Source: a virus
Reading direction: 5' to 3' (one strand)
Length of the DNA stretch: 64,000 nt
Virus genome (UHGV): UHGV-0021788
Part shown: piece by piece, positions 23,499-63,421 of the stretch
How positions within the stretch are numbered: the first letter of the stretch is position 1
Layout of the letters: each line of letters begins with the position of its first letter
The notes under the pieces: model-generated
What the model was told of the DNA's origin: nothing
Databases searched by the model: none
What the model saw: the letters and a program-made list of their open reading frames with translations, nothing else
Translations under genes and position numbers: made by a program

Positions 23499-23527
23499 AT
23501 TATACTATTATTCTTGTTAAAAGTAAA
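23499..23527 (-). promoter_or_regulatory. Family promoter (-10 rc at 23499-23504, -35 TTTACT) upstream of thyX.
   Basis: The rc reads TTTACT, 17 nt, TATAATATAAGTAA. Confidence 0.6.
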
Positions 23528-23533
23528 GTATTT

Positions 23534-23851
23534 TTATATTAACATTGCAAATCTTGATATTTCAAAACCATTTAAGTAATATGTGAATTCATATATTTTT
23601 AATTCATCCATTCTTTTTTCTTCTTTAGTATGCATACTTAATGGATATATGGTTAAACTTTGCATTTTTTCTTTTAACTCATTAGCAAAATGAAACAATT
23701 CTTCTTTCTTCCATTCTGTAAATTTATTAGTATCATAACATATTAATTCACATCTTGATTCAAATCTTAATATTCTTTCATTAAAATATTTTATCTCAAT
23801 ATCTACAAAATTCATTAACTTATTTCTATCATTATTATATTCGTCTCCCAT
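23534..23851 (-). CDS. Hypothetical protein.
   Basis: ORF 105 aa. Confidence 0.4.
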   Translation of the reverse strand: MGDEYNNDRNKLMNFVDIEIKYFNERILRFESRCELICYDTNKFTEWKKEELFHFANELKEKMQSLTIYPLSMHTKEEKRMDELKIYEFTYYLNGFEISRFAMLI

Positions 23852-23863
23852 TAATACCCTCCT

Positions 23864-24310
23864 TTATATTTCATCATATTTAAGACAATTAATACCTCTT
23901 AAAGATGCTAATTTCTTACTTAATGGTGCATCATAATCTTCTAAATATATTATTGTATTTATACCACTGTTAATAATTGCTTTCATACAATTAACGCATG
24001 GAAAAGTTGTTACATAAAGAGTAGCACTTTCACAAGATACTCCTACTCTAGCACATTGTAAAATTGCATTCATTTCTGCATGAACAGCAAAACAAGTATC
24101 TAAATTTTCTCCACTTTTACTTTCTTTTCTTATACAATAACCTTTATCATAACAAGTTTCTATACCTTGTGGTGAACCATTGTATCCTGTTGCTAATATT
24201 CTTTTATCTTTTACTATTACTGCTCCTACTTGTCTTGATAAACAACTAGAACGTTTGGCTATATCTAAACATACTGTCATAAAATATTCTTCCCATGTTA
24301 ATCTTCGCAT
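23864..24310 (-). CDS. dCMP deaminase (zinc-dependent cytidine/deoxycytidylate deaminase family).
   Basis: HAEMNAI and PCVNCMKAI zinc-ligand motifs. Confidence 0.8.
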   Translation of the reverse strand: MRRLTWEEYFMTVCLDIAKRSSCLSRQVGAVIVKDKRILATGYNGSPQGIETCYDKGYCIRKESKSGENLDTCFAVHAEMNAILQCARVGVSCESATLYVTTFPCVNCMKAIINSGINTIIYLEDYDAPLSKKLASLRGINCLKYDEI

Positions 24311-24331
24311 TTAATCATCTCCTTTATTTAT

Positions 24332-24360
24332 ATTATACTATTAATATTATAAAAAGTAAA
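24332..24360 (-). promoter_or_regulatory. Family promoter upstream of the dCMP deaminase gene.
   Basis: The rc reads TTTACT, 17 nt, TATAATATAAATAAAGG. Confidence 0.6.
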
Positions 24361-24395
24361 TAAAATCCTAAGAAAAAATTCTTAGGATTTTTTAA

Positions 24396-25574
24396 TTATT
24401 TCAATTCTTTATGATTTAAGATTATATTTAATATAACTCCAACTATAGCAGATAATGCTAAAGAAGATAATGACACAATTCCTAATGTTAATGTAAATCC
24501 ACCTAATCCTATAATTAGCATAATTATTATAATAATTATATTTTTTATAGATTTATATGATTTATTATCTTTTAATGATTTCATACCAACCCAAGCTATC
24601 ATAAAATAAAGTTGTAAACTAATTGCTCCAACAACAAAACTAGGGATTGATTGTAATGTTCCACTAAAATAACCACATAAAGATAAAATTATAGCTAATA
24701 TTCCAGCCCTTCTAGTTAACTTACTATCATATTGTTTTGTTAAAGCTAATACTGAAGTTGATTCTCCATAAGTAGTATTTCCTACGCTTCCAAATAATCC
24801 TCCTAATGCAGTAGCTAAACCATCTGCAATTAATGTTCTGTGCAAACCAGGATTTTCTATGAAATTTTTATTAGTAACAACACCCAATGTAGTTATGTCT
24901 CCTATATGCTCTAAACAAGTTACTAATGCAACTGGAGCAACAATCATAATTGCAGTTAAATCGAATTTGGGTAATACTATACTAGGTAACATTATGCTTT
25001 GTGATTGTGTTACAATAGAAAAATCAACTAAACCACATAAAATAGATATTGCATATCCAACTAATAATGCTATCATTATTCCCAATTGTTTTAATAATCC
25101 TTTTCCAAATAATAAAATTAATAATGATATACTTAAAGATATTATAGCTATTAATATATTTCCTTGTATATTCGTTATAGCACTAGGAACTAAAGATAAT
25201 CCAATTATTATTATCATTGTTCCTGTTATATGAGGTGGTAATATTTTATTAATTTTGTTTACGCCTATTTTATAAATCAATAACGCAAATACAATATATA
25301 TTAATCCTACTATTATAAATCCACCACAACTATATTCATAACCATATTGTGAAACAATAATAGACATAGGTGTTATAAAGGCAAAACTAGAACCTAAAAA
25401 TGCTGGAACTTTATTTTTTGTAATAAAACCAAATAACAAAGTACCAATTCCAGCAGTGAATAACGCAGTAGATGGAGGAAATCCAACTAATAATGGCACG
25501 AGCGTAGTTGCTCCTACGCAAGCCAATAATATTTGTAAACTTAATAACCATTCTTTTACATTTTGTTTTTTCAT
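24396..25574 (-). CDS. Uracil permease (NCS2/UraA-PyrP family), ~11 TM.
   Basis: VGATTLVPLLVG.., LGSSFAFITP motifs typical of PyrP/UraA. Strongly hydrophobic. Confidence 0.7.
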   Translation of the reverse strand: MKKQNVKEWLLSLQILLACVGATTLVPLLVGFPPSTALFTAGIGTLLFGFITKNKVPAFLGSSFAFITPMSIIVSQYGYEYSCGGFIIVGLIYIVFALLIYKIGVNKINKILPPHITGTMIIIIGLSLVPSAITNIQGNILIAIISLSISLLILLFGKGLLKQLGIMIALLVGYAISILCGLVDFSIVTQSQSIMLPSIVLPKFDLTAIMIVAPVALVTCLEHIGDITTLGVVTNKNFIENPGLHRTLIADGLATALGGLFGSVGNTTYGESTSVLALTKQYDSKLTRRAGILAIILSLCGYFSGTLQSIPSFVVGAISLQLYFMIAWVGMKSLKDNKSYKSIKNIIIIIIMLIIGLGGFTLTLGIVSLSSLALSAIVGVILNIILNHKELK

Positions 25575-25620
25575 TATATCAAATCCTTTCTCTATCTCTC
25601 GTGGATAGAATTAAAATTAT

Positions 25621-26328
25621 TTAATCATTTATTTCTACTTCATAATCATACATAGCATCATATAACTTTTTAGATATGTATGGTTTATATTCATTAGCTA
25701 TTTGTTTAATATATTTTTCTTTTTCTATTTTATATACATTAAATGCTTCTTCTACTGTAGAATAACATCCTAAATATCTTTTTCTACTATCATTAAACTC
25801 ACATTGTGATATATATTTTCCATTTTTATGTTTATATACGCCTATAGGATATTTTCCTCTTTTAATATCTGTCTTTGTAAATATTTTATTTATTCTTTGA
25901 GGTACAAAAACACAAGTTTTAGGAGAGTATATTTTATTTCCTTTTATTAATATATCTTTATCTAAACACATAGTTTCTTTTTCAATCTCATAGTAATTTT
26001 CTTCAAACCATTTAGCAAAGTTTTGGAAATTATGCCATTCTTCACAAACATAACAATCTTCATACGTATTATATTTTTCTTTCCATAATTTACTATATCC
26101 TCTTTCCAACATTCTCATCCATTCATGGTAACATTTTGTTTCCTTATTGTTTTCTCTAAATTTATATTTACCTTCACCTAAATATCCAATATCTCTAAAC
26201 CTTTTTTCATAAGGGCATATGATACTACCATTTTTAAAATGCTCATATCTACTATGTTTAAAAGTCCAATTATATTCCTCAAAATAAACATCTATATCCT
26301 TAGCATTTCTATATTCAATTATTTTCAT
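25621..26328 (-). CDS. Homing-endonuclease-like protein. The N-terminal module is shared with HEG family B and the C-terminus is an AP2-like DNA-binding domain.
   Basis: N-terminus IIEYRNAKDIDVYFEEY resembles IITYRCYEDIDVQFEDNT. C-terminus GKYISQCEFNDSRKRYLGCYSTVEEAFNVY is AP2-like. Confidence 0.4.
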   Translation of the reverse strand: MKIIEYRNAKDIDVYFEEYNWTFKHSRYEHFKNGSIICPYEKRFRDIGYLGEGKYKFRENNKETKCYHEWMRMLERGYSKLWKEKYNTYEDCYVCEEWHNFQNFAKWFEENYYEIEKETMCLDKDILIKGNKIYSPKTCVFVPQRINKIFTKTDIKRGKYPIGVYKHKNGKYISQCEFNDSRKRYLGCYSTVEEAFNVYKIEKEKYIKQIANEYKPYISKKLYDAMYDYEVEIND

Positions 26329-27799: not shown

Positions 27800-27831
27800 T
27801 CTATCATCTCCAATCCAATGTCTTTAATATT

Positions 27832-27860
27832 ATTATACTAATACTATTATTAAAAGTCAA
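27832..27860 (-). promoter_or_regulatory. Family promoter (TTGACT/TATAAT) for the FAD-protein - HEG-like - uracil permease operon.
   Basis: The rc reads TTGACTTTTAATAATAGTATTAGTATAAT. Confidence 0.7.
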
Positions 27861-27907
27861 CATTTTTATAAAAAAATAGGAAGAAAATTTCTTCCTATTT
27901 TATATTG

Positions 27908-28477
27908 TTATCTACTTGATGTTGTCCCGAAGCCACCTCTGTTTTCTGTACCTAAATCATCAGTTTCATTAAATTCAATAGATGGTGGAATCTTACATAT
28001 TTCCATTTGACATATTTTGTCACCTTTTTTAATCCATGTACCACTTATTGTTACTTTATGTCCATTTATCACAACTTTTTCAGTTTGTTTTGCCATAGTA
28101 CATTGACAAGGATACATATAGATATCATCATTGCCACAGTATGAATTATCTATTACACCAACATGATTGGTTTGTATTATTCCAAAGTTTTTAAAAGTTG
28201 AACTTCTAGGATATAATTTAGCCATATAACCTTCAGGTAATTTTAATGAAAATCCTAGAGATATCAATGCTTGACCCATATAAGGAACAAATACATCTTC
28301 ATATGCATATAAGTCTATAAAATCACCTTTTGATATTTTAAATAATTTATTAGCACCTTCCAAATATTTTATATCTACTTTTAAAGTTTCAGTATCTTCC
28401 GGAGTATTTTCTATAATATTTTCTCCTTTTGTATCTTTTAGTCCTTTGAAATATTTATTTAAATCTATATTATCCAT
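27908..28477 (-). CDS. dut: dUTPase.
   Basis: Motif 3 GVIDNSYCG and C-terminal motif 5 RGGFGTTS. Confidence 0.75.
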   Translation of the reverse strand: MDNIDLNKYFKGLKDTKGENIIENTPEDTETLKVDIKYLEGANKLFKISKGDFIDLYAYEDVFVPYMGQALISLGFSLKLPEGYMAKLYPRSSTFKNFGIIQTNHVGVIDNSYCGNDDIYMYPCQCTMAKQTEKVVINGHKVTISGTWIKKGDKICQMEICKIPPSIEFNETDDLGTENRGGFGTTSSR

Positions 28478-28719
28478 TATTCATTTTCTCCTTTTTCTTT
28501 TTCTTCTTTTTCAGTTTCTCTTATAATTGCATTAATTTTGCCTATAATTATTTCATTCATTTTTGTTAATGCATCGCTTAATTCTTCTGAATCTTCTTTA
28601 GTCATTTTTTCTTTTATATCTATTTTTTTACCATTTATTTCTAATTCATATATTTCTAATGATAAAGTACCATTCTCACCAATTAATAATTCACCTATTT
28701 GTTCTTTCACAAATATCAA
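28477..28719 (-). CDS. Hypothetical protein (acidic C-terminus).
   Basis: ORF 80 aa coupled to dut. Confidence 0.4.
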   Translation of the reverse strand: MIFVKEQIGELLIGENGTLSLEIYELEINGKKIDIKEKMTKEDSEELSDALTKMNEIIIGKINAIIRETEKEEKEKGENE

Positions 28720-28738
28720 CTCCTTACACTTTATTTAT

Positions 28739-28767
28739 ATTATACTATTATTTTTCTTTATTGTCAA
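28739..28767 (-). promoter_or_regulatory. Family promoter (TTGACA/TATAAT).
   Basis: The rc reads TTGACAATAAAGAAAAATAATAGTATAATATAAATAAAG. Confidence 0.65.
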
Positions 28768-28792: not shown

Positions 28793-29971
28793 CTATTTTA
28801 TATTATTTAATTTTTTATATAAACACTTATTGCATTCTTCTCCTATTTTAAGATATTTTCTAACTACGTCATCGCTAATATTCATTTTATTGGCTATGTC
28901 TATAACTTTATATTTATTATTCCATAGTTCCCATGTTTTAACACATAAACTATTTTGACTTTCTTCCCAAGCCAATTCCCAATCTACATTAGATAAATCA
29001 AAACAATCACTAAGTTCTTTTATGATGTTTTCTTTTAACCATTCTAAAGTAGAATATCTACAATCTATTACTATATAATTGTTAATATGATTCTTAGCAC
29101 ACTTATATTTAAATAAATCATTCATTTGTTCTTGTTCTAAAGTTCTACCTCTAGCACTACTTTCATAATGTTGTATCCCATTTATTTCTATTATACTATT
29201 TGTTCTAGGTAAATAAAAATCATAATAGAAATAATTTTTATCACTAAATTTTTTAGAAGATAATTCTGCTATAAAATCTTCATTTAATTGTTTTAATATG
29301 TTAGCCATAAATTTATTTGGAATACTAATTCCATCAGAACAAATTTCACAAGAAAATCTTCTTCTTACTACATTATTTAATATTTTTTTATTTTTTGATA
29401 TATTACCACAATCTAAACATTTAAAATAGTATTTTTTATCACTTCCACAAGATATATTATAACAATCTTCAAAAGTTAAATTATTTTCAGATATAGCAAT
29501 CATTTTGGCTACATTTGGATAATTATATGCTAAACTATCTTTATAATGAGTTTTTTTTCTAGCATTACAATATCCACATCTACCTCCTCTGTAAAAATGG
29601 CTACAACTTATTTCATATCCAATTTTATTACCTTCTCTGTCATAATTATGATATTCATTTTCTAAACAATATAGCCAAACTTTTTTATTTGCCTGTTTTG
29701 ATATTTCTTTTGGATTAACTTTATTCAGTTCCCAATTCCATATGTCATCTAAATTTAATCCTAATTCAATTTCTATATGATGTGCAAAACTTTCTTCATA
29801 TCTAAAAGGATGTTTTATTTCACCTTTTTTAAAACTTCCATAACTTTTATTATAATTTATAGTATTATCTTCAAATTGAACATCTATATCCTCATAACAT
29901 CTATAAGTTATAATCGTCATTTTTTCTCCTTGTGTATTTAGATTTGTTTCTCCAGTTCTGTCTTTTTTCAT
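28793..29971 (-). CDS. Free-standing homing-endonuclease-like gene, family B (N-terminal module, Cys-rich zinc-binding region, Vsr-like/DUF559-like nuclease core).
   Basis: YDFYLPRTNSIIEINGIQHYE core; CxxC pairs. Paralogs at 31745 and 41528. Confidence 0.5.
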   Translation of the reverse strand: MKKDRTGETNLNTQGEKMTIITYRCYEDIDVQFEDNTINYNKSYGSFKKGEIKHPFRYEESFAHHIEIELGLNLDDIWNWELNKVNPKEISKQANKKVWLYCLENEYHNYDREGNKIGYEISCSHFYRGGRCGYCNARKKTHYKDSLAYNYPNVAKMIAISENNLTFEDCYNISCGSDKKYYFKCLDCGNISKNKKILNNVVRRRFSCEICSDGISIPNKFMANILKQLNEDFIAELSSKKFSDKNYFYYDFYLPRTNSIIEINGIQHYESSARGRTLEQEQMNDLFKYKCAKNHINNYIVIDCRYSTLEWLKENIIKELSDCFDLSNVDWELAWEESQNSLCVKTWELWNNKYKVIDIANKMNISDDVVRKYLKIGEECNKCLYKKLNNIK

Positions 29972-31371: not shown

Positions 31372-31400
31372 TTACATCTCTCCTTTATTCATTTACTTAT

Positions 31401-31429
31401 ATTATACTAATGTTCTTATTAAAAGTCAA
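31401..31429 (-). promoter_or_regulatory. Family promoter upstream of the kinase gene.
   Basis: The rc reads TTGACTTTTAATAAGAACATTAGTATAATATAAGTAAAT. Confidence 0.75.
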
Positions 31430-31647
31430 TTATTTTCTTCCCATTTTGTATTTTTATAATCTGCTTCTATTTTTTCTAATACTTCATCAACTGTTAATTC
31501 ACCACTTACACCTTTACTTAAAGAAAATAACATTGAACAATAATCATATATTGGACAAAATTCTTCACATTGCATGATTGTGTCGCATGGTAAATTAGAA
31601 AAATCAATTAATAATTCACTTAATTCTAAGAGTTTCTTTTCATCCAT
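31426..31647 (-). CDS. Hypothetical small protein.
   Basis: ORF 73 aa. Confidence 0.4.
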   Translation of the reverse strand: MDEKKLLELSELLIDFSNLPCDTIMQCEEFCPIYDYCSMLFSLSKGVSGELTVDEVLEKIEADYKNTKWEENN

Positions 31648-31700: not shown

Positions 31701-31737
31701 AAAAAGAAAAAACCTAGATAAATTATTTATCTAGGTT
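31701..31737 (-). terminator. Rho-independent terminator after HEG 31745..33175.
   Basis: 12-bp stem AACCTAGATAAA/TTTATCTAGGTT with a T-run on the - strand. Confidence 0.7.
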
Positions 31738-31744
31738 TTAAATT

Positions 31745-33175
31745 TTAACTACATTTAGTAATTTTATATCCTTCGTATTTTGATATAATACTTCTTTTAG
31801 ATTTAGAAAAATTTGAAGAATATATTATAAATCCTTTTTTTGCAATATTATTATAATAAGTATCTTTTGATATATTTAATAATTTACACAATTCTGTTAA
31901 TGTTATTTTAGTTTTATTATTTTTTAAATCAATCAGATATAATGTTAATTCTTTAAATTTACCCTTTTCCTTTTGACTATCTACATCATATTTTATATTA
32001 TTTGAATCATTACCATCTTTTAAATACTTTCTTATAGTATGTCTATCTAATTTTAATAATTGACATATCTCACTTATACTTTTTCCATTTTTCCATAAGT
32101 CCCAAGTTTCAACACATAAACTTTTCTGAGAATTTTTCCATATTAAATTCCAATCTAAAATACTTAAATCGTATAAATATTTTAAATTGGAATTTAATAT
32201 TTTCATTTTTATATAATTAAAAGTATTACAATTATATTCTTTAGAATCCATCAAATCTACTCTTATGACATATATCTCATGCTCTAAGCATTTCTTATCT
32301 TTCCAACTATCTATTTCTTTTCTTTTATTTTTATGATTATCTTTATATTCTGCATCCATTTCTATAGCAATTTTTAAATGTTTATCATATCCGTCTAATC
32401 TTTTATTTTCCAACCATATTGGAGAATATTCAAATTCTAAATCTAAATTAAGTTGTTCTGATATTTGTCTTAAAATTTTATTTGGTAAACTTATTCCATC
32501 TGAACAATATTCACAATGATGATTTTGAAGCATAACACTACTCAATTCTTTCTTATTATTTGATATTTTATTACACTTATCACATTTAAAATAAAACTTT
32601 TTATTACTTTGACAAGCTATATTATAACAATCATCAAAAGTTAAATTATTCTCAGATATAGCAATCATTTTGGCTATATTTGGATAATTGTAAGCTAAAC
32701 TATCTTTATAATGAATCTTTCTTCTATTACAATATCCACATCTATGACCTCTGCAAAATCGACTTGGTTTAGTTTTATATCCTATTTTATCACCCTCTTT
32801 ATTGTAGTTATGACAATTATATTCTAAACAATACAACCATATTTCCTTATCACTCCCAAAAGAAATAAAATAAGGATTTATATTATTTTCATTATTCTTT
32901 TCCCAATTCCAAATATCATCTAAATTTAATCCTAATTCAACTTCTATATGATAAGCAAAACTTTTTTCATAACAGCCACAACAATTCCTACATTTATTTA
33001 TATATTTATTAAAACTATCCAATCTAATAATTAACTCATTATCACAATACAAATGTGTTACATTCACTTTAATTCTATCTTTTCCATTCTCTTTTAGTTT
33101 AATAGAATAATTATATTTAAAAGTATTATATTGTTCAACTTTATTTTTATGATTTTCATTATAATATTTTACCAT
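31745..33175 (-). CDS. Family B homing-endonuclease-like protein with C-terminal tandem HTH extensions.
   Basis: DGYDKHLKIAIEMDAEYK core. Cys-rich region shared with 28793 and 41528. HTH-like segments ITLTELCKLLNISKDTYYNNIAKKG. Confidence 0.5.
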   Translation of the reverse strand: MVKYYNENHKNKVEQYNTFKYNYSIKLKENGKDRIKVNVTHLYCDNELIIRLDSFNKYINKCRNCCGCYEKSFAYHIEVELGLNLDDIWNWEKNNENNINPYFISFGSDKEIWLYCLEYNCHNYNKEGDKIGYKTKPSRFCRGHRCGYCNRRKIHYKDSLAYNYPNIAKMIAISENNLTFDDCYNIACQSNKKFYFKCDKCNKISNNKKELSSVMLQNHHCEYCSDGISLPNKILRQISEQLNLDLEFEYSPIWLENKRLDGYDKHLKIAIEMDAEYKDNHKNKRKEIDSWKDKKCLEHEIYVIRVDLMDSKEYNCNTFNYIKMKILNSNLKYLYDLSILDWNLIWKNSQKSLCVETWDLWKNGKSISEICQLLKLDRHTIRKYLKDGNDSNNIKYDVDSQKEKGKFKELTLYLIDLKNNKTKITLTELCKLLNISKDTYYNNIAKKGFIIYSSNFSKSKRSIISKYEGYKITKCS

Positions 33176-35686: not shown

Positions 35687-35910
35687 ATTATCTCTCCTTT
35701 TTAATTTAATATAACCACTATATATTGTGTAGCATATAAAAAATAAGACACTATATATTGTATTTTTAACCCCTAACCTTAATAAAAATGAATCAATTAA
35801 TATTTATAAAATTTCATGAATTGATATAATGTTAAAGTTTGTTGTTTTTCTAATGAAGCTAATATATTATTCATAATTCATCTCTCCTTTATTAAGATTA
35901 TTTTAATTAT

Positions 35911-51173: not shown

Positions 51174-51202
51174 ATATATTCTCCCTTCTTTCCTTTATTT
51201 AT

Positions 51203-51231
51203 ATTATACTATATTTTTTATTAAAAGTAAA
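51203..51231 (-). promoter_or_regulatory. Family promoter upstream of dnaE.
   Basis: The rc reads TTTACTTTTAATAAAAAATATAGTATAATATAAATAAAGG. Confidence 0.6.
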
Positions 51232-51232
51232 T

Positions 51233-51259
51233 AAGGATAGAGAATTTATCTCTATCCTT
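51233..51259 (-). terminator. Hairpin terminator after gene 51266..51724.
   Basis: 11-bp stem AAGGATAGAGA/TCTCTATCCTT. Confidence 0.55.
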
Positions 51260-51265
51260 AACAAA

Positions 51266-54852: not shown

Positions 54853-54885
54853 ACTTAATCTCTCCTTTATTTATCTATTTACTTA

Positions 54886-54914
54886 TATTATACTATTATT
54901 CTTATTAAAAATCA
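54886..54914 (-). promoter_or_regulatory. Family promoter (TTGATT/TATAAT).
   Basis: The rc reads TTGATTTTTAATAAGAATAATAGTATAATATAAGTAAATA. Confidence 0.7.
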
Positions 54915-54918
54915 ATTG

Positions 54919-55278
54919 TTATTTAAGATTTTCTTTTGATAATTTTTCTGCAACTTCATTAATTTCATTAAAATAGAAAAATACATCATGAAATTTTTTA
55001 ACTTCTTTATCTAATTCTTTAGTTCTACTATAGTATCCATCAAAAGAACAATGTATTCTCAAGGGTAAATCTTTATTATTTATAAGTCTACAACTGTCTA
55101 AAATTGAAGAATAAATAACATCTTCTATTTTCTTGTATTGTATGATTCCACTACTAACCTTTTTATCTGCAATAAGTTCCAATTCATTATTAATGTATTT
55201 AAGATAAATACCATAACTAGCTTTGGTTGTTTTGTTTATTTTATTAACAAATATATAAACTTCTATTAAACTATTCAT
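54919..55278 (-). CDS. Hypothetical protein.
   Basis: ORF 119 aa. Confidence 0.4.
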   Translation of the reverse strand: MNSLIEVYIFVNKINKTTKASYGIYLKYINNELELIADKKVSSGIIQYKKIEDVIYSSILDSCRLINNKDLPLRIHCSFDGYYSRTKELDKEVKKFHDVFFYFNEINEVAEKLSKENLK

Positions 55279-55790: not shown

Positions 55791-56318
55791 CTATGTGGGT
55801 ATGATTATTGAATTATTTTCAATATTAAATTTAATACCATATTTATTCATAGTTTCAATTGATATACCTTCATAAATCCATTCGATAGCTTTATAATTGA
55901 CAAAAGTATTAAGTATGCTTTCATCATATTGTGGCAATTGTTCATTAAAGTCTATTTCTTTTTTTATAGGTTTTCTTATAGGAACTTCTTTTTTCTTAGG
56001 TCTACCAAATCCTTTTTGAAAATTCATATTTAAATTAAAATAATCCTCAATAAATTCAACTGATTCTGTAAATGTTAAATCCATTACTTCTTGAACTAAT
56101 GTTATTATATCAAAACTACCACAATTTGTATAACAATGGAAAATTAAAGAATCTTTATATAATTCACATTTCCATGATTCACCACTATGACATAGAGATG
56201 TATTCATAACCATTTTCTCATTTGTTTCCATCTGTTCATTAAATTCTCCGCCTAAATATAAAACTAAATCAACTATCATATCCAATGTAAGTTTATCTTT
56301 AAGTTCTTTACTATTCAA
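55791..56318 (-). CDS. Primase zinc-binding (zf-CHC2) N-terminal segment. It is separated from the Toprim segment by a -1 frameshift near 55770-55795.
   Basis: SLCHSGESWKCELYKDSLIFHCYTNCGSFDIITLVQEV zf-CHC2 motif. Confidence 0.65.
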   Translation of the reverse strand: MNSKELKDKLTLDMIVDLVLYLGGEFNEQMETNEKMVMNTSLCHSGESWKCELYKDSLIFHCYTNCGSFDIITLVQEVMDLTFTESVEFIEDYFNLNMNFQKGFGRPKKKEVPIRKPIKKEIDFNEQLPQYDESILNTFVNYKAIEWIYEGISIETMNKYGIKFNIENNSIIIPT

Positions 56319-56341
56319 TTAACTCACCATCCTTTACTTAT

Positions 56342-56370
56342 ATTATACTAAAAATTTTATTAAAAGTAAA
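56342..56370 (-). promoter_or_regulatory. Family promoter upstream of the primase.
   Basis: The rc reads TTTACTTTTAATAAAATTTTTAGTATAATATAAGTAAAGG. Confidence 0.6.
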
Positions 56371-56400
56371 TAAAAAGAGATGTAAATGTTTACATCTCTT
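56371..56400 (-). terminator. Rho-independent terminator after the FtsH-like gene.
   Basis: 11-bp stem AGAGATGTAAA/TTTACATCTCT plus a T-run. Confidence 0.7.
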
Positions 56401-56421
56401 TTTTATAGCATGTCTTATTTA

Positions 56422-58266
56422 TTATTTTTTCATACTCATATTATAAGTTGTTATAAGTTTTTCTACTTCATATCCTTCTAATGTTTCTTTTTCCATTAAT
56501 TCTTCAGCTATTGTTGATATTAATTCTTTATTTTCTTCTACTATTTGCATTGCTTTTCCATATGCTTCATCAACTATTTTTTTCATTTCTTCATGTATTT
56601 TTTCTTGCATAAATAAATTTCTTTCATCTATTTTCATTTTACCTAACTCACTCATACCATAATCACAAACCATACGTTGTGCTATTGCTGAAACACTTCC
56701 TAAATCTCCACTACATCCACTACTCTCATGTCCAAAGAATACCTTTTCACTTACTGCCCCTCCAAGAGATACTATCATACTATTTATTAGGTCTTCTTTT
56801 GTTCTTATAAATCTATCATCTTCTTCATGATATAAGCAGTAACCTAAAGCATCTGCATGTGGTATGATTGTACATTTACTTAATTTTTTATTATTTAATA
56901 TTTCTGACATCATTAAGTGTCCAACTTCATGATAAGCAGTTATTTTCTTTTCTCTATCTATCATGACTGTAGATTTTCTTTCTAGTCCAGCTATTTGTCT
57001 ATCTATTGCTCTTAATAACATATTTTGAGTTATTTCATCAGCATCTTCTCTTATTGCTATCATTGCACCTTCTGTTAATATAGCTTCCATATCAGCACTA
57101 GCCATACCATGCGTTTGACTAGCTATGATTTCTAAATCAACATCTTCTGCTAAAGGTCTATCCTCGGCATATAATTTTAATATTTCTAATCTTGTTTTTT
57201 TATCAGGGTTAGGTATGTATATATGTCTACTTAATCTACCTTGTCTTTTTAAAGCTGGGTCTAATATATCACTTCTATTTGTTGCACCTATTACTAATAT
57301 ATCCTCATTGTCAGGACTTGCTAATTCAACTAATAATTGATTTAATGTGGCATTATGCTCTTTATTATTTTCTTCTTCTCTTTTTCCACCAACTGCATCA
57401 ATTTCATCTATAAATATAACGGCAGGTCTATTATTTCTAGCTTTTTTAAATAGGTCTCTTACTCTTGATGCACCAACACCAACGTATTTTTCATTAAATT
57501 CAGAACCAGCCATTGAATAAAATACTGCATCTGTTTCTCCTGCTATGGCTCTAGCTAATAAAGATTTACCATTACCTGGTTCGCCTTCTAATAACACTCC
57601 TCTTGGAGGAGTAACTTTAAATTTCTTAAATTTCTCTTTATCATTAAAACCAGCTATTAGTTCCATAAGTTCAATTTTAACTTCTTCTAATCCAGCTACA
57701 TCTTTTAGAGTAGTATTAGATTTTTCACCACCATCGAAATTTTCAGTTTGTTTTTTTATTTTAGAATTAAATTTAGATGTGTCGAAAGTAAAAAGTCCCA
57801 TATCTATTTCTTCTTTTTCATCATCATCATCTGTTTCTTTAGGATTTCTTATTTCATCAAATAAATCTTCTATTTTTTTCATACTACCTTCTATTTCTTT
57901 TCTTTCTTTTTCAATTTTTCTTTCTTCATCTCTTATTGCTTGTTCTACTTGAAATATTAATATATCAACATAACTATCTGCAATATCTTCTGCTACTGAT
58001 AACGCTTTTTCATTAGGTTCTGCTATTTGAAATAATAATTCCCTAGCTTCAAATTTTGTTTCTATTGATTTAACATCTTTTATGCTTAAGCTATCTATGT
58101 CTACATCATCTTTTAATGTGTCTTTTAGAGTACATGGTGAACAAACTAAATAATAACCCCTTACACTAGGATAAAATAAAGCACTACCATAAGTAAAAAT
58201 TATATCCATAAAATAACTTTTTTGTTCTTCTCCATTTTTTCTTATTACAACCTTATTCCTTTTCAT
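56422..58266 (-). CDS. FtsH-like AAA+ ATPase fused to an M41 zinc metalloprotease, with no N-terminal transmembrane segments (a soluble FtsH homolog).
   Basis: Walker A GEPGNGKS. Walker B IFIDEIDAVG. SRH ATNRSDILDPALKRQGR. HEVGHLMM HExxH. Confidence 0.7.
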   Translation of the reverse strand: MKRNKVVIRKNGEEQKSYFMDIIFTYGSALFYPSVRGYYLVCSPCTLKDTLKDDVDIDSLSIKDVKSIETKFEARELLFQIAEPNEKALSVAEDIADSYVDILIFQVEQAIRDEERKIEKERKEIEGSMKKIEDLFDEIRNPKETDDDDEKEEIDMGLFTFDTSKFNSKIKKQTENFDGGEKSNTTLKDVAGLEEVKIELMELIAGFNDKEKFKKFKVTPPRGVLLEGEPGNGKSLLARAIAGETDAVFYSMAGSEFNEKYVGVGASRVRDLFKKARNNRPAVIFIDEIDAVGGKREEENNKEHNATLNQLLVELASPDNEDILVIGATNRSDILDPALKRQGRLSRHIYIPNPDKKTRLEILKLYAEDRPLAEDVDLEIIASQTHGMASADMEAILTEGAMIAIREDADEITQNMLLRAIDRQIAGLERKSTVMIDREKKITAYHEVGHLMMSEILNNKKLSKCTIIPHADALGYCLYHEEDDRFIRTKEDLINSMIVSLGGAVSEKVFFGHESSGCSGDLGSVSAIAQRMVCDYGMSELGKMKIDERNLFMQEKIHEEMKKIVDEAYGKAMQIVEENKELISTIAEELMEKETLEGYEVEKLITTYNMSMKK

Positions 58267-58305
58267 AAATATCTCTCCAATCTTTTTATAATTTATTTTA
58301 TATAT

Positions 58306-58334
58306 ATTATACTATAAAACTTATTAAAAGTCAA
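58306..58334 (-). promoter_or_regulatory. Family promoter upstream of the FtsH-like gene.
   Basis: The rc reads TTGACTTTTAATAAGTTTTATAGTATAATATATA. Confidence 0.7.
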
Positions 58335-58405
58335 ATAGTTTTCTGAAAATTTAATTTTATTTATTTTTTTGTATTTATAATCTATTAACACCATACTTTC
58401 GTATT

Positions 58406-58579
58406 CTATAAGTAATTATCAACAATAGTCATAATCAATGAAATACCAATTACAGCTAAAAATACCTTACCTATTAAAAAATGAAACAACCAATAAGACA
58501 TTCCTCCTATTAATACAAGACCTAAAGTAACTATAATCATTATAATAAAATATGAAACCCAATTTTTAAAAAAATTCAT
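58406..58579 (-). CDS. Small membrane protein (57 aa, 2 TM).
   Basis: MNFFKNWVSYFIIMIIVTLGLVLIGGMSYWLFHFLIGKVFLAVIGISLIMTIVDNYL. RBS GGGGGGTG. Confidence 0.45.
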   Translation of the reverse strand: MNFFKNWVSYFIIMIIVTLGLVLIGGMSYWLFHFLIGKVFLAVIGISLIMTIVDNYL

Positions 58580-58682
58580 ATTACACCCCCTTTTTTTTAT
58601 AATTTATCTAATTCCTCTTGTAATCTTTTTATTTGGTTTTCTATGTCTTTTATCTTTGCTTTTCTTTTTTCTTCTTCTTGGT

Positions 58683-59153
58683 CTACTTTTGTTTTATAAA
58701 ATTTATCTCTAAAGTCCCACAAATCTTTTGTTTTCCAGTGAACTTTTTATAACCTAAATCATATGCTTTCTCTATGCTAATAAATGGTGCATCCCAATCA
58801 CAATGTTCACCTGTGCATCCATATCTATAGTCATAACCTTTATCATTTTCAGTGCAACAACAATATCCTTCCATGATTTCTTTGTATCCAAAAACTAGTC
58901 TATATTGATAAAAAAAACTATCAATACTACTGTTATAGATATCTACAAAGAATATAAATTCTTCAAAAGGATTATCTGAAGTCATTGAACTAACATTATA
59001 CTTATAATTTTCCATATCATAAAATAAATTTGTGAAACAATCATCATTCTCATATTGTTCTACAACTGCTAAATAAAATGAAGGTTCTATGTTATTTCTC
59101 ACCAGATGTTTATGAATTTCTTTTTTAAATTTACTCTTAATTTCTTCATTCAT
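58683..59153 (-). CDS. Cys-rich hypothetical protein. A -1-frame coiled-coil extension (to 58596) is possible at a T_AAA_AAG site.
   Basis: ORF 156 aa. See the finding on recoding. Confidence 0.45.
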   Translation of the reverse strand: MNEEIKSKFKKEIHKHLVRNNIEPSFYLAVVEQYENDDCFTNLFYDMENYKYNVSSMTSDNPFEEFIFFVDIYNSSIDSFFYQYRLVFGYKEIMEGYCCCTENDKGYDYRYGCTGEHCDWDAPFISIEKAYDLGYKKFTGKQKICGTLEINFIKQK

Positions 59154-59173
59154 ATCAATCTCTCCTTTATCTT

Positions 59174-59202
59174 ATTTACTTATATTATACTATGCTTTTT
59201 AT
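59174..59202 (-). promoter_or_regulatory. Family promoter.
   Basis: The rc reads TTTACTTTTAATAAAAAGCATAGTATAATATAAGTAAATAAG. Confidence 0.6.
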
Positions 59203-59269
59203 TAAAAGTAAATAAATAAAATAAACTTTTTACTTATTTTCAACAATTTTATAAAAAGTAAAATAATAA

Positions 59270-59292
59270 AATTCCCCTCTTGTAGGGGAATT
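59270..59292 (-). terminator. Rho-independent terminator after the small-peptide operon.
   Basis: 9-bp stem AATTCCCCT/AGGGGAATT plus a T-rich tract. Confidence 0.65.
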
Positions 59293-59314
59293 TGCTACTG
59301 TTTATCTTCTCTTT

Positions 59315-59443
59315 TTAACAAATAAATAATAAAAGAAATCCTACTAACAACATTACTACGCCAAGAATCATTTCACCAACCATTAAACCTATTATTCCTA
59401 TAACTATGTTGCATGTACCTACAGCAATACGAAACTTATCCAC
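59315..59443 (-). CDS. Tiny hydrophobic peptide a (42 aa, GTG start), paralog of b and c.
   Basis: DKFRIAVGTCNIVIGIIGLMVGEMILGVVMLLVGFLLLFIC. RBS GGGAG. Confidence 0.45.
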   Translation of the reverse strand: MDKFRIAVGTCNIVIGIIGLMVGEMILGVVMLLVGFLLLFIC

Positions 59444-59447
59444 TTTA

Positions 59448-59582
59448 TCACTCCCATTTAACAAACACTAAATAAAATCCTGTTAATAACATCGCAATAC
59501 CCATCATTATTTCACTATTCATCAAATCTATTATTCCTGCAAGTATGTCACATACACCTACAACTCTACAAACCTTATTCAT
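59448..59582 (-). CDS. Tiny hydrophobic peptide b (44 aa).
   Basis: MNKVCRVVGVCDILAGIIDLMNSEIMMGIAMLLTGFYLVFVKWE. RBS AGGAG. Confidence 0.45.
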   Translation of the reverse strand: MNKVCRVVGVCDILAGIIDLMNSEIMMGIAMLLTGFYLVFVKWE

Positions 59583-59593
59583 TTTATACTCTC

Positions 59594-59710
59594 CTAATTA
59601 ATAAATAATAAAAGAAATACTGCTAAAAACATTGTAATAGCTAAACCTATTTTACCACACATCAAATCTATCACCCCTAGAATAACACAAGCCATAATCA
59701 TAAAAAACAT
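59594..59710 (-). CDS. Tiny hydrophobic peptide c (38 aa).
   Basis: MFFMIMACVILGVIDLMCGKIGLAITMFLAVFLLLFIN. RBS AAAGGAGG. Confidence 0.45.
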   Translation of the reverse strand: MFFMIMACVILGVIDLMCGKIGLAITMFLAVFLLLFIN

Positions 59711-59728
59711 ATTCACTATTCCTCCTTT

Positions 59729-59875
59729 TTACATTCCAAACAAATGCCAAATAAATTCAATTACTGGTATTATAACACCATCACAAAACTTATCCATTAT
59801 AGCTATAAATGCAGTAATAAGACCAGCTATTATCGTAGGGATAATAGTTAATAAGGCTATAATTTCAGTAATCAT
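59729..59875 (-). CDS. Tiny hydrophobic peptide d (48 aa).
   Basis: MITEIIALLTIIPTIIAGLITAFIAIMDKFCDGVIIPVIEFIWHLFGM. RBS AGGAG. Confidence 0.45.
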   Translation of the reverse strand: MITEIIALLTIIPTIIAGLITAFIAIMDKFCDGVIIPVIEFIWHLFGM

Positions 59876-59918: not shown

Positions 59919-60716
59919 CTATTGATTTTTATATTCTCTTTCAACTAACCACAATAAGCAATAATTTGCTAAGTCCAATATAGTATCATCAATCTTTTTC
60001 ACTCTTTGTTCAGGTATATTTGGGTTACACAATGTTAATAATTTATTATATTCGTCAGTGATTCTTACTAAGAATGACACACAACCAAATTTTTCATAAG
60101 TATCTGCAAAACTATTCCCATAATCGTTATTTTTAGCTTTATATGTTTCTTCTAAATTATTTAATAAATATTGGTATATATCTAATCTATCCATTTTAGA
60201 TGTTGTAGCAGGCTCTAAATCATCTTCCATTATAACAGGTTCTACCATATCTTTATTCCATGCAAAAGGATTATCCTTACCAGCTAAATATAAATCACCG
60301 TCCTCATCTATACTTTCTATAGTGTCAGTTGTTCCCCTAAATTTAAGCATATGTTCATTAACGTCACAATGTCCATATTTCTCACCCTTTTTCAAGTCAT
60401 CCCTTATTTCAACAACATCGCCTATTTTATATTCCACACTATTTTTCTCCTTTATTTCTTCTACATGAATAAGTTCTTTTAAATCATCTTTTAATTCAAC
60501 AAGTTCTAGCATGTCTTTATGCCATGAATAATAATTTGTATCTTTAGGGTTAGCTATAGATTTTAAGCTATAATCTCCATCAAAATCTATATCAACTATA
60601 ACATACATTTTTCCTCTATATTCTAACATACCTTCTAAAACTTCACAATTCCCATACTTTTCTCCCACTTGTAAGCCATCTCTTACTTTTACAATATCAC
60701 CTATTTCATATTTCAA
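59919..60716 (-). CDS. Hypothetical protein with an internal ~85-aa tandem duplication and a distinct C-terminal domain.
   Basis: Repeats Y(E/K)IGD(I/V)V(K/E)(V/I)RD.L..GEKYG.C.V.E.ML..RG ... W.KDM(L/V)E x2. Confidence 0.4.
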   Translation of the reverse strand: MKYEIGDIVKVRDGLQVGEKYGNCEVLEGMLEYRGKMYVIVDIDFDGDYSLKSIANPKDTNYYSWHKDMLELVELKDDLKELIHVEEIKEKNSVEYKIGDVVEIRDDLKKGEKYGHCDVNEHMLKFRGTTDTIESIDEDGDLYLAGKDNPFAWNKDMVEPVIMEDDLEPATTSKMDRLDIYQYLLNNLEETYKAKNNDYGNSFADTYEKFGCVSFLVRITDEYNKLLTLCNPNIPEQRVKKIDDTILDLANYCLLWLVEREYKNQ

Positions 60717-60748
60717 GTTAATCTCTCCTTTATCTTATTTATTTATAT

Positions 60749-60777
60749 TATACTACACTTTTTATAAAAAGTAAAGA
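60749..60777 (-). promoter_or_regulatory. Family promoter for 59919..60716 and the peptide operon.
   Basis: The rc reads TTTACTTTTTATAAAAAGTGTAGTATAATATAAATAAATAAG. Confidence 0.6.
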
Positions 60778-60802
60778 GATAAAATAAAATTTATCTCTTT
60801 AT
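60775..60802 (-). terminator. Hairpin terminator after the helicase gene.
   Basis: 11-bp stem AAAGAGATAAA/TTTATCTCTTT. Confidence 0.6.
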
Positions 60803-62373: not shown

Positions 62374-62375
62374 AA

Positions 62376-62936
62376 TTATTTATCCCCTTTCTTTTTACTA
62401 TCTATTATTTTAAATATATTATTTGAATTTTTATCCGCATTCCTTCTTTGTCTTTCTAATCTTTCAAATATATCGCTATCATCTTCATATTTTAAATTTA
62501 TAATTATATCATCATTAGTATTTATTTCAGTTGTGCCAAAATTTGCCGTATCATCTTTGATTTTGTTTCTAATACAAGCAAATATATAACTTATTTTTCC
62601 ATATTCATCTTGTATATTTTTCATTTCTAAATATCTTTTAATTTCTTCTTTATTATTTTCTATACAATTATATATTTGTTCTCTTGTATATTCTTTTTCC
62701 AATTCCTTTAATTCATTAACCTTCACTTTAGATACAGATGTATAACCTAATATATCATCTATACTAATAAGAAGTTTTTTCCATAGACTTTTTAAATATT
62801 TATCTCTTTCAAATTCTTCTTTAGAACAATAATATGAATTTGTTTTTTTCTTTGTTTCTTCATTAATTTTTGTTACAACATATGCTTCATTTTTTTCTAT
62901 TTTATTTTTACAAATCTTACAAGTTACTTTAGCCAC
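62376..62936 (-). CDS. Hypothetical protein with an N-terminal zinc ribbon.
   Basis: CKICKNKI...YYCSKEEF. Confidence 0.4.
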   Translation of the reverse strand: MAKVTCKICKNKIEKNEAYVVTKINEETKKKTNSYYCSKEEFERDKYLKSLWKKLLISIDDILGYTSVSKVKVNELKELEKEYTREQIYNCIENNKEEIKRYLEMKNIQDEYGKISYIFACIRNKIKDDTANFGTTEINTNDDIIINLKYEDDSDIFERLERQRRNADKNSNNIFKIIDSKKKGDK

Positions 62937-62981
62937 ATTCTCACCCCCTCTTTATAAGTCTAAAATTCATTTCTTATTTAT

Positions 62982-63010
62982 ATTATACTATGTTTTTTAT
63001 AAAAAGTAAA
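62982..63010 (-). promoter_or_regulatory. Family promoter.
   Basis: The rc reads TTTACTTTTTATAAAAAACATAGTATAATATAAATAAG. Confidence 0.6.
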
Positions 63011-63012
63011 TA

Positions 63013-63040
63013 AAAACGACTGAAAAAATCAGTCGCTTTT
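63013..63040 (-). terminator. Hairpin terminator after 63048..63233.
   Basis: Stem CGACTGA/TCAGTCG plus T-runs. Confidence 0.6.
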
Positions 63041-63047
63041 ATATTAA

Positions 63048-63233
63048 TTATAAATTTTCTTTTTTTACAGTCACAACTTCCCCATCTTCAGTTTCCACTA
63101 TATAATAAATTAATTTTTCTTTATTATAATACTCAGCTAATATTTTATAATTATTCATTATTATCTTCCCCTCTTTCTCATTGTTATGGGTAATATTTAG
63201 AATCAAGTATTCTACAAGTTCTATTCTTTTCAT
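63048..63233 (-). CDS. Hypothetical small protein.
   Basis: ORF 61 aa. Confidence 0.35.
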   Translation of the reverse strand: MKRIELVEYLILNITHNNEKEGKIIMNNYKILAEYYNKEKLIYYIVETEDGEVVTVKKENL

Positions 63234-63392
63234 CTACTTCTGTAGCAGGTTTCAATGCTTGTTACAAGCTTCCCTATTCAACGTGTTCTCTTTCGTTTTA
63301 AACTACTTGAGTTTTTTACAACACTCCAAGGGCGTAAATTCGGACTTGAACGTTCCTACATATTAATTTGTTTTTATTTCTTATTTACTTAA

Positions 63393-63421
63393 ATTATACT
63401 ATTACTCCTATTAAAAGTCAA
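63393..63421 (-). promoter_or_regulatory. Family promoter (TTGACT / TATAAT).
   Basis: The rc reads TTGACTTTTAATAGGAGTAATAGTATAATTTAAGTAAATAAG. Confidence 0.7.

Follow-up and report, generated by a model that had tools for sequence, protein, structure and literature searches.

The window analyzed here, a 64,000-nucleotide stretch of virus genome UHGV-0021788, contains 22 copies of a 38-base motif, TTKACTTTTAATAAGA-N4-TAGTATAATATAAGTAAA, three on the + strand and 19 on the - strand. These repeats are probably strong pre-replicative promoters read by the host primary sigma-A (sigma-70 family) RNA polymerase (RNAP) holoenzyme, with additional conserved blocks that would tune the polymerase, and they would serve both as terminator-promoter modules and as substrates for recombination.

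A pattern search of the window allowing up to three mismatches recovered 20 copies, against 0.23 expected from shuffles and a largest shuffle of 2. The PWM scan, with mononucleotide shuffles as the null (top shuffle score 1.7), returned 22 copies at 25-52 bits and none between 8 and 25; the two that it added are 28730-28767(-) and 35902-35939(-). Every copy is oriented toward its downstream gene. The copies, the first two of which have ~50 nt of upstream flank in common, are as follows (HEG, homing endonuclease gene):

3880-3917, + strand: before HEG-like ORF 3931-4845 (treble-clef zinc finger/CapR)
6018-6055, + strand: before HEG-like ORF 6061-6984 (treble-clef zinc finger/CapR)
10155-10192, + strand: before NUMOD3 HEG-like ORF 10205-10915
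23490-23527, - strand: TTTACT; before ORF 23534-23851
24323-24360, - strand: TTTACT; before the dCMP deaminase gene; terminator hairpin 24362-24391 abutting
27823-27860, - strand: before the FAD-dependent protein gene; hairpin 27873-27901, 12 nt upstream
28730-28767, - strand: weaker (25 bits), TTGACA, divergent spacer block; before ORF 28477-28719
31392-31429, - strand: before the guanylate kinase gene; directly adjoins the upstream ORF's stop codon
31660-31697, - strand: before ORF 31426-31647; terminator 31709-31739, 11 nt upstream
35902-35939, - strand: weaker (28 bits), TTGATT; upstream of the ribonucleotide reductase gene
38315-38352, - strand: TGTG preceding TATAAT; before the RNA ligase gene, which is missing from three relatives
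40276-40313, - strand: TTTACT; 78 nt between TATAAT and small ORF 40033-40206; downstream HEG module missing from three relatives
45268-45305, - strand: hairpin 45305-45328 abutting; one arm of a direct repeat around a variable 441-bp module
45781-45818, - strand: hairpin 45818-45841 abutting; other arm of that direct repeat
51194-51231, - strand: TTTACT; before the Pol III alpha (PHP + intein) gene; -35 is the tail of terminator 51232-51260
54878-54915, - strand: TTGATT; just past the stop of ORF 54919-55278
56333-56370, - strand: TTTACT; before ORF 55791-56318; terminator 56372-56403 abutting
58297-58334, - strand: before the FtsH-like AAA protease gene
59175-59212, - strand: TTTACT; before ORF 58683-59153; upstream lie a decayed partial copy (59229-59262) and terminator 59269-59293
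60738-60775, - strand: TTTACT; before ORF 59919-60716; hairpin 60776-60797 abutting
62973-63010, - strand: TTTACT; before ORF 62376-62936 and the DnaB-like helicase gene; -35 is the tail of terminator 63010-63042
63384-63421, - strand: no nearby ORF start; followed by RAGATH-18 RNA 63270-63332

These copies have the layout of primary-sigma promoters: a TTGACA-like -35, TATAAT at 17 +/- 1 bp from it, and a position upstream of a gene and co-oriented with it. The -10 is exactly TATAAT and the spacer exactly 17 bp in 22/22 copies; the -35 is TTGACT in 11, TTTACT in eight, TTGATT in two and TTGACA in one (those at 54915, with TTGATT, and 28767 being among the departures from TTGACT/TTTACT), and agrees with TTGACA at 4-6 of 6 positions. 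In the 20 copies of the pattern search, bases outside the search pattern were also conserved (A at position 16 in 18/20, T21 in 19/20, A22 in 17/20 and G23 in 20/20), and positions 30-38 (ATAAGTAAA) were mostly 19/20. Strong conservation stops at motif position 38, approximately +3, and positions 39-42 (TAG/TAAG) are weakly conserved. A generic search for perfect hexamers with a 17-bp spacer found 20 sites and the extension was present at 20/20; loose sigma-70-like matches showed no excess over shuffles (194 vs 170; 165 vs 180).

With TATAAT at -12 to -7, ATAAGT would occupy -6 to -1 as an A+T-rich discriminator, and transcription would most likely start at the A of AAA at motif position 36. 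The extra blocks would then lie at -29 to -20 (TTTAATAAGA), -15 to -13 (TAG) and -6 to +3 (ATAAGTAAA), where they most likely adjust polymerase binding, open-complex stability and escape, allowing phage promoters to beat those of the host. A Shine-Dalgarno (SD) sequence and start codon follow 21-78 nt past the -10 in 21/22 copies, the remaining copy leading to the RAGATH-18 RNA, and the predicted leaders would be short and run directly into the SD sequence. The preliminary description, which had counted about 22 copies of an extended promoter consensus, is borne out on number, on coordinates and on conservation well beyond the hexamers, as well as on the proximal spacer and the TAG; its conserved block at +1 to +12 was mis-registered. 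Since strong conservation in the predicted transcript is limited to AAA (+1 to +3), little favors the shared 5' leader function that it suggested, and its interpretation overall is partly supported.

Among 57 orthologous site alignments, the two motif blocks mismatched at 1.6% and 2.4% of positions, the upstream flank at 7.3% and the 4-nt gap at 21.5%, so that the blocks change 3-4 times less than the flanks and the gap ~3 times more than the flanks; the relatives in this comparison were partly retrieved via the motif itself, an ascertainment bias, and loci retrieved by protein, all from close relatives, agree. Distant phage-like contigs (65-76% nucleotide identity), searched with the hexamers only, carried the extension at 18 of 19 sites (18 unique sites with a 17-bp spacer). 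The strict form of the motif occurs in none of 185,579 species genomes. Judged from these alignments, the extra conserved blocks are under purifying selection.

The RNAP holoenzyme contacts DNA in a sequence-dependent way in the spacer, at -17 to -13, in the discriminator and from -4 to +2. It is therefore an overstatement that the conservation reaches far beyond normal sigma-A contacts, as had been proposed, since the holoenzyme contacts the spacer and discriminator and T4 early promoters also carry additional consensus regions (Hinton, 2010; PMC2988021). The copies do not resemble T4 middle (MotA/AsiA) promoters, which have a MotA box centred at -30 in place of the -35 element (PMC2988021): a canonical -35 is found in all copies and a TGCTT box in none. 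Nor do they have an extended -10 of the TGn/TRTGn type. TAG directly abuts TATAAT with no TG at -15/-14, and TG one base before TATAAT was found in none of the copies listed by the scan, that at 35939 included. G occupies -13 in 20/20 copies, and in 151/153 when relatives are included; in the relatives NTG-TATAAT occurs alongside TAG-TATAAT, with G still at -13. This invariant G, which is not the canonical TGn, counts against the sigma-A reading.

A phage-specific specificity factor, as the preliminary description suggested, is possible; that a phage-encoded or virion-injected factor recognizes the extension, at a promoter still read by sigma-A, is, in our estimation, unlikely. The candidates would be a DNA-binding activator or repressor, or an RNAP modifier comparable to T4 Alt, and the extension, as an operator or specificity element and not a sequence that tunes RNAP, would mark phage promoters for preferential use or coordinated shut-off. 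To our knowledge, spacer and discriminator are less invariant in host promoters than here, which leaves room for such a factor. In its favor, the blocks outside the hexamers hold ~23 bits of information vs ~15 bits in the hexamers, these blocks are near-invariant over ~157 copies in relatives, and the strict form of the motif is absent from bacterial genomes. The G lies at -13 rather than within the canonical TGn, the extended -10 reported in C. difficile (TGNTATAAT, PMC7438776), and in T4 the Alt-modified RNAP prefers certain early promoters, the mechanism of early shut-off being still unknown (PMC2988021). Against it, a scan of 40 window ORFs revealed no domain of sigma-like, RNAP-like, anti-sigma or ADP-ribosyltransferase type, and every conserved position falls where the holoenzyme itself contacts DNA. 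Nor is any dyad or direct repeat in the motif convincing: CTTTTAATAAG is only weakly palindromic, and TTTACTT can pair with AAGTAAA in the minority TTTACT variant alone.

The genes served by these putative sigma-A promoters would be pre-replicative, either early or early/middle. The 19 - strand copies precede nucleotide-metabolism and replication genes, including those for Pol III alpha, DnaB, ribonucleotide reductase, dCMP deaminase, dUTPase, guanylate kinase, RNA ligase, an FtsH-like protease and similar proteins, and the three + strand copies precede HEG-like ORFs. The + strand tail-fibre-like and lysis genes in the window are without the motif, and the + strand block ends in endolysin and holin genes (assigned from orthologues). 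The claim that late genes lack the motif thus holds within the window, where + strand copies stand only before the three HEG-like ORFs; the claim that all three + strand HEGs are preceded by copies also holds, and every early transcription unit on the - strand may have one, as had been proposed. The - strand HEG-like ORFs at 28793-29971 and 39321-40049 do not each have a copy of their own. The source is an uncultivated gut phage of ~200 kb, most of whose genome lies outside the window, with relatives of 147-204 kb. Its replicase is a Pol III alpha with an intein, and the sole GenBank relative is Clostridioides phage AR1086-1 (dnaE fragment, 74.6% nucleotide identity). A search with the uracil permease matched metagenomic proteins only.

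A hairpin ended within 20 nt of the -35 at 96/177 copies, compared with 12/150 control positions, in keeping with the earlier statement that terminator hairpins are often fused to the promoter; the four hairpins that it quoted (45305-45328, 45817-45840, 51233-51259 and 60775-60802) are present. A hairpin accompanies nine or ten of the 22 copies in the window, roughly half. With an intrinsic terminator defined as a G+C-containing hairpin followed by a T-rich tail, from which termination is predicted, the terminator scan returned 11 and 7 terminator-like sites vs 2.0 and 2.3 in shuffles. In the - strand terminators at 63042-63010, 56403-56372, 51260-51232, 45841-45818, 45328-45305 and 24391-24362, the -35/TTTT is the T-tail, and in several copies the -35 and following TTTT would double as the terminator U-tract. 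The TTTACT variant is associated with abutting hairpins (17/33 vs 8/134, odds ratio 16.7). The hairpin sequences are mutually unrelated, except for the GGAGT...ACTCC pair at 45305 and 45818. A terminator-fused copy would make the gene or small gene group behind it an insulated terminator-promoter-SD module.

As direct repeats of 38-70 bp, the copies may also be substrates for homologous recombination, by which modules would be added, deleted and swapped between related phages. Where the window has two copies, 45305 and 45818, on either side of 441 bp, one relative (L039) has a lone chimeric cassette, which supports module exchange like that of the promoter-early stem-loops (PeSLs) discussed below. 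Homology breakpoints fall within 50 nt of a copy in 11/51 cases vs ~2.4 expected, and further indels adjoin copies; a single case is clean, with both breakpoints inside copies. Polymorphisms at positions 3/10/15/18/19/34 are linked among copies (T3-A15 odds ratio 18.7; 15 and 34 co-vary), and show that part of the similarity between copies reflects common descent or gene conversion, not independent selection alone. It is nonetheless improbable that the extended identity is mainly copy-and-paste ancestry, in which a cassette was spread and homogenized by recombination or gene conversion and the extra bases are hitch-hiking homology, aiding modular shuffling and dispensable for transcription. 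The sub-families defined by the linked polymorphisms, the chimeric cassette, the breakpoint enrichment, the decayed partial copy and the PeSL precedent (PMC4122927) would all fit such ancestry, but identity ends sharply at positions 1 and 38 and the 4-nt gap inside the motif is close to random, which argues for position-specific selection rather than recent copying. Moreover, the blocks change ~10 times less than the gap as well as less than the flanks, the extension is retained in the 65-76% identical relatives, and gene boundaries account for most indel breakpoints, with or without a copy there.

It is highly improbable that the motif is read by a phage-encoded sigma or RNA polymerase, or acts in RNA as a shared 5' leader or processing site: AAA(TAG/TAAG) is conserved at the predicted 5' end and the large genome lies mostly outside the window, but the motif matches the primary-sigma consensus perfectly (TTGAC-17-TATAAT), as does no phage sigma or RNAP promoter that we know of, six of the nine strongly conserved downstream bases are upstream of the probable start, conservation dwindles by +3 to +7, and the leaders vary in sequence and length.

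A repeated promoter/terminator arrangement is already known from T4 relatives and staphylococcal Kayvirus, and the closest analogues of the window promoters are best read as the T4 "uber" early promoters, the PeSL cassettes and the Kayvirus early promoters; the SPO1 host-takeover module is presumably a further comparable system. Staphylococcus Kayvirus vB_SauM-515A1 has 58 sigma-70-type early promoters, some before intron endonuclease genes (PMC7698491). It resembles the window phage as a large phage with dozens of TTGACW-17-TATANT early promoters, intrinsic terminators that bound many short units, and early promoters also before intron-encoded endonuclease genes within the morphogenesis region; its host is Gram-positive and its late genes use a different motif. 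Unlike those in the window, its promoters carry a Gram-positive TRTGN extension and a loosely defined UP region, without invariant spacer and discriminator blocks, and its sites are validated by RNA-seq, whereas those of the window are predicted from sequence. The T4 early promoters (UP/-35/TGn/-10), whose use is enhanced by Alt (PMC2988021), are likewise a phage-specific, very strong host-sigma class whose consensus extends past the canonical elements; T4 uses them to capture host RNAP as infection begins, and the window promoters may by analogy do the same. In contrast to T4, the window promoters have no TGn and no clearly conserved UP element, the parts conserved in them are the proximal spacer and the discriminator/+1 region, and no Alt-like enzyme is known for the phage.

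PeSLs are composite terminator/promoter cassettes of T4-like phages (Arbiol et al., 2010, PMC2839356; Comeau et al., 2014, PMC4122927). As in PeSLs, a stem-loop lies immediately 5' of a sigma-70-type promoter close to consensus (N17), with an SD sequence and start codon behind it; each genome has many copies, mostly in non-structural regions, and degraded partial copies occur. Copies also border indels and replacements between close relatives, and the chimeric single cassette fits recombination between two copies. Unlike in PeSLs, the stem-loop is present at only about half of the copies and has no conserved, family-specific sequence (e.g. GN-loop-CN, A3-4G3-loop-C3T3-4), the conserved core being the 38-bp promoter itself, spacer and discriminator included. 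Mini-circle formation is a feature of PeSLs, whereas the window cassettes are known from sequence alone. The phage lineage is also different, with a Pol III alpha-type replicase, a Gram-positive-style SD, 26% G+C and an origin in gut metagenomes rather than a T4-like myovirus genome. Given AR1086-1 as the sole GenBank relative and the intein-containing replicase, the window cassettes would be an analogue of the PeSLs, not a member of that family.

A search of the window for TTKACTTTTAATAAG-N8-TATAAT, allowing up to three mismatches, returned 20 matches, against 0.23 expected from dinucleotide shuffles. Scanning with a 38-bp position-weight matrix, in which positions 1-6 form the -35 hexamer, 24-29 the -10 hexamer (TATAAT) and 30-38 a downstream block, gave 22 matches of 25-52 bits and none between 8 and 25; the top score in shuffled DNA was 1.7 bits. 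Three copies lie on the + strand (3880, 6018 and 10155) and 19 on the - strand, between 23490 and 63421, a number that bears out the roughly 22 copies of an extended consensus claimed in the preliminary description. The conservation is not an artifact of the search pattern, since near-invariant bases lie outside it: A16, T21, A22, G23 (20/20) and positions 30-38, which read ATAAGTAAA. When perfect hexamers with a 17-bp spacer were the sole query, 20 sites were found in the window, with the extension present in all. Measured against the 74% A+T background, the extension holds ~23 bits and the two hexamers ~15 bits, and loose sigma-70-like matches in the window showed no excess over shuffles. 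The motif is real, and in DNA of this composition only its extended form is informative; loose sigma-70 scans are not.

With TATAAT at -12 to -7 and a 17-bp spacer, positions 7-16 (TTTAATAAGA) correspond to -29 to -20, the variable positions 17-20 to -19 to -16, TAG to -15 to -13, and ATAAGT to -6 to -1. Transcription probably starts (+1) at A36, judged from the customary distance of 6-8 nt; Kayvirus transcripts start ~6 nt past the -10 (PMC7698491). Beyond +3 conservation is weak, with a TAG/TAAG signal up to +7. The block formerly placed at +1 to +12 is indeed conserved, but it is mostly discriminator rather than transcript and its strong conservation stops at +3, a registration that weakens the argument for a shared leader. 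A G directly adjoins TATAAT at -13 and does not form the canonical TGn seen in C. difficile (TGNTATAAT; PMC7438776). A Shine-Dalgarno sequence and start codon lie 21-78 nt past the -10 in 21 of the 22 copies; at the remaining one (63421) a RAGATH-18 RNA comes next instead. This RNA (63270-63332, - strand; Rfam RF03064, 68.2 bits, gathering threshold 44.9) sits ~50 nt downstream of the copy at 63384-63421 and upstream of a 61-aa ORF (63048-63233). Two further features of the motif were set aside: the inverted repeat TTTACTT (1-7)/AAGTAAA (32-38), treated as chance or low complexity, is perfect in the minority TTTACT variant only and is broken by G3 in ~80% of copies, while stop codons in all three frames (TAG21, TAA26, TAA31 and others) are a trivial outcome of a TA-rich motif and do not testify to any function.

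The window has a G+C content of ~26% and a strand switch near 22.2 kb. The + strand block encodes tail-fiber-like proteins (CotH/laminin-G, LRR) and ends in an endolysin and a holin, judged from orthologues; no late-promoter motif was established in the window, which has few late intergenic regions. The - strand block is a replication and nucleotide-metabolism region, with ThyX, dCMP deaminase, uracil permease, dUTPase, RuvC, guanylate kinase, RNR, RNA ligase, a ClpP-like protein, a beta-CASP nuclease, Pol III alpha (with intein), a DHH phosphoesterase, a DNA methylase, an FtsH-like protease and DnaB. The ClpP-like protease (38369-39307) and the FtsH-like AAA+/M41 protease (56422-58266) are both phage-encoded on the - strand. 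Pol III alpha occupies two - strand ORFs, 46243-47775 and 48198-51173, ~420 bp apart, one with PHP, intein and NTPase content and the other with finger and HHH; the intein region 48726-50020 is precisely missing from three related loci, and an insertion of 842 bp is present in one relative at 47976-47992. At 59315-59875 (- strand) four tandem ORFs of ~40-50 aa, below our ORF cut-off of 50 aa, encode similar hydrophobic peptides (e.g. MITEIIALLTIIPT..., MFFMIMACVILGVIDLM...), and their copy number varies among relatives.

Of the three ORFs that follow the + strand copies, two carry treble-clef zinc finger/CapR domains and one carries NUMOD3; all are therefore homing endonuclease gene (HEG)-like. 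They are surrounded by G+C-richer, structured-looking DNA:

3675-3930, + strand, G+C-richer flank of a HEG-like ORF
4846-5171, + strand, G+C-richer flank of a HEG-like ORF
5847-6060, + strand, G+C-richer flank of a HEG-like ORF
6985-7389, + strand, G+C-richer flank of a HEG-like ORF
10066-10204, + strand, G+C-richer flank of a HEG-like ORF
10916-11670, + strand, G+C-richer flank of a HEG-like ORF

Motifs such as CAACGACTA...GATATAGTCT occur in these flanks, as does the hairpin CTCATGGGAAACCATGAG followed by TTTTT; some 80 nt at 10070-10150 recur at 11140-11215, and related phages have copies (67-84% identity) in several locations. In appearance they resemble group I intron cores; Rfam gave no match at E ≤ 0.01 across 3500-11800. 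Three - strand ORFs of 392-483 aa (28793-29971, 31745-33175 and 41528-42979) have treble-clef zinc finger or multiple HTH matches, are variably present among relatives and appear paralogous through cross-matches via related loci (58-59% aa, 72-76% nt identity); they probably form a further family of free-standing endonuclease-like genes. Close relatives (L069, 1228-2328; L070, 143-3436) have an IS605 OrfB/TnpB (Cas12f-like) gene between the KTI12-like and RNR genes and an RNR with a LAGLIDADG-bearing intein, both missing from the window.

Outside the window, eight IMG/VR contigs (18-204 kb) each have numerous copies of the motif, six of these contigs being from metagenome 3300045988 (147-204 kb) and two from 3300000360 (18 and 51 kb), and independently protein-retrieved loci lie on ~175-200 kb human-gut metagenome contigs syntenic with the window. 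Phage-like relatives with 65-76% nt identity (contigs L059-L064, L066 and L067) are binned in 'Bacilli bacterium' MAGs (MAG195, MAG100, MAG064); either these contigs were mis-binned or they hint at the lineage of the host. These relatives carry the extension at 18/19 hexamer-only sites (18 unique sites with a 17-bp spacer), but NTG rather than TAG precedes their TATAAT and position 34 varies. The strict motif occurred in none of 185,579 bacterial and archaeal species (one genome each), and a relaxed pattern gave just two matches that were not phage-like. The sole GenBank phage match, Clostridioides phage AR1086-1 (a dnaE fragment, 74.6% nt identity), has two perfect-hexamer sites across 100 kb, neither with the extension, and so provides no comparative information. 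A homology search with the uracil permease, made for the host, returned metagenomic proteins only, many on ~200-kb phage-like contigs; homologues of this uracil/xanthine permease (24396-25574, - strand) number in the thousands in metagenomes.

Stable hairpins ending within 20 nt of the -35 accompany 96/177 copies, compared with 12/150 control positions, and an independent terminator scan gave 11 and 7 sites against ~2 expected. At the - strand sites 63042, 56403, 51260, 45841, 45328 and 24391 the promoter itself supplies the T-rich tail, as TT(T/G)ACTTTT. The TTTACT variant, a G-to-T change at -33, is tied to abutting hairpins (17/33 vs 8/134), which suggests a compromise between a good -35 and a good U-tract, or else a sub-family effect. 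The reading of these elements as promoters in terminator-promoter cassettes holds; since hairpin sequence and distance vary, the conserved unit is the promoter and there is no fixed cassette.

Selection and recent copying both contribute to the identity of the copies. Across 57 orthologous-site alignments with relatives, part of which were found through the motif itself so that the comparison is biased, mismatch rates were 1.6% at positions 1-16 and 2.4% at positions 21-38, whereas the upstream flank reached 7.3% and the 4-nt gap 21.5%, which indicates position-specific purifying selection. Among 80 non-orthologous copies, linkage is seen between polymorphic positions 3, 10, 15, 18, 19 and 34 (T3 goes with A15, for instance, at an odds ratio of 18.7); the copies thus form sub-families, related through descent or gene conversion.

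The copies at 45305 and 45818 form a direct repeat, with hairpin type, promoter and +1 region in common and two small ORFs between them. The related locus L039 has one cassette, its upstream flank and hairpin as in copy 45818 and its downstream flank as in copy 45305, as would be produced by a crossover within the promoter that deleted or added 441 bp; other relatives have 297-1750 bp of unrelated DNA between the two cassettes. Homology breakpoints fall within 50 nt of a copy in 11/51 cases (~2.4 expected), and many lie at gene boundaries without any copy. Gene-sized indels beginning just downstream of copies involve the RNA ligase gene, a NUMOD3 HEG module, the methylase gene and others, and the segment comprising a promoter and the RAGATH-18 RNA is itself an indel (349 bp missing in four related loci, other sequence in seven). 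A second, seemingly clean recombination at 58363-59157 was rejected on alignment, since a relative keeps both copies ~60 nt apart; this segment is a module inserted between two retained cassettes, with no crossover inside the motif. A decayed partial copy at 59229-59262 (- strand), 16 nt upstream of the intact 59175-59212, has kept TTTACTTTTTATAAAATTGTTGAAAATAAGTAAA and lost TAGTATAAT, and is like the 'degraded PeSLs' (promoter-early stem-loops) of T4-like phages.

Taken together, we consider it likely that the motif is a host sigma-A-type class of pre-replicative promoters, carried in insulated, recombination-prone modules. An alternative, which we think improbable, is that the spacer (-29 to -20), G(-13) and discriminator/+1 blocks are not bases that tune RNA polymerase (RNAP) and instead spell out a recognition code specific to the phage, its reader being phage-modified RNAP or a phage protein that is injected or early; no sigma-like or RNAP-like domains were found among 40 scanned window ORFs. 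Such a code would set the phage's own promoters, ~40-50 per genome, apart from the sigma-A promoters of the host and would permit coordinated switch-on or shut-off. It would thereby be the Gram-positive equivalent of two features of T4 that still lack an explanation, the Alt effect and early shut-off. For annotation, the sigma-A-type motif is a very sharp promoter model (38 bp, ~38 bits) for the transcription units of a human-gut phage family (~175-200 kb) that is widespread but uncultivated. If confirmed experimentally, a -35 that doubles as a terminator U-tract could inform promoter engineering in low-G+C Firmicutes, which the G at -13 replacing TGn and the near-invariant A+T-rich discriminator could likewise guide. 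PeSL-type modules were previously described for T4-like phages of Gram-negative hosts. Our analysis shows this module architecture, and its swapping, also in an unrelated, very low-G+C phage lineage, and does not overturn current understanding.

Early promoters of T4 have consensus regions beyond UP/-35/TGn/-10, some favored by Alt-modified RNAP (PMC2988021); PeSL terminator/promoter cassettes are agents of modular shuffling in T4-like phages (PMC4122927); and Kayvirus carries 58 early promoters of sigma-70 type, some of which precede genes for intron endonucleases within its structural region (PMC7698491). The window motif matches all three in kind. It differs from them in its phage lineage, in the G at -13 that replaces TGn, in its unusually rigid spacer and discriminator blocks, and in its non-conserved hairpins, whose U-tract overlaps the -35. 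These differences in lineage and sequence make it an analogue of PeSLs and early 'uber' promoters rather than a member of the T4 families.
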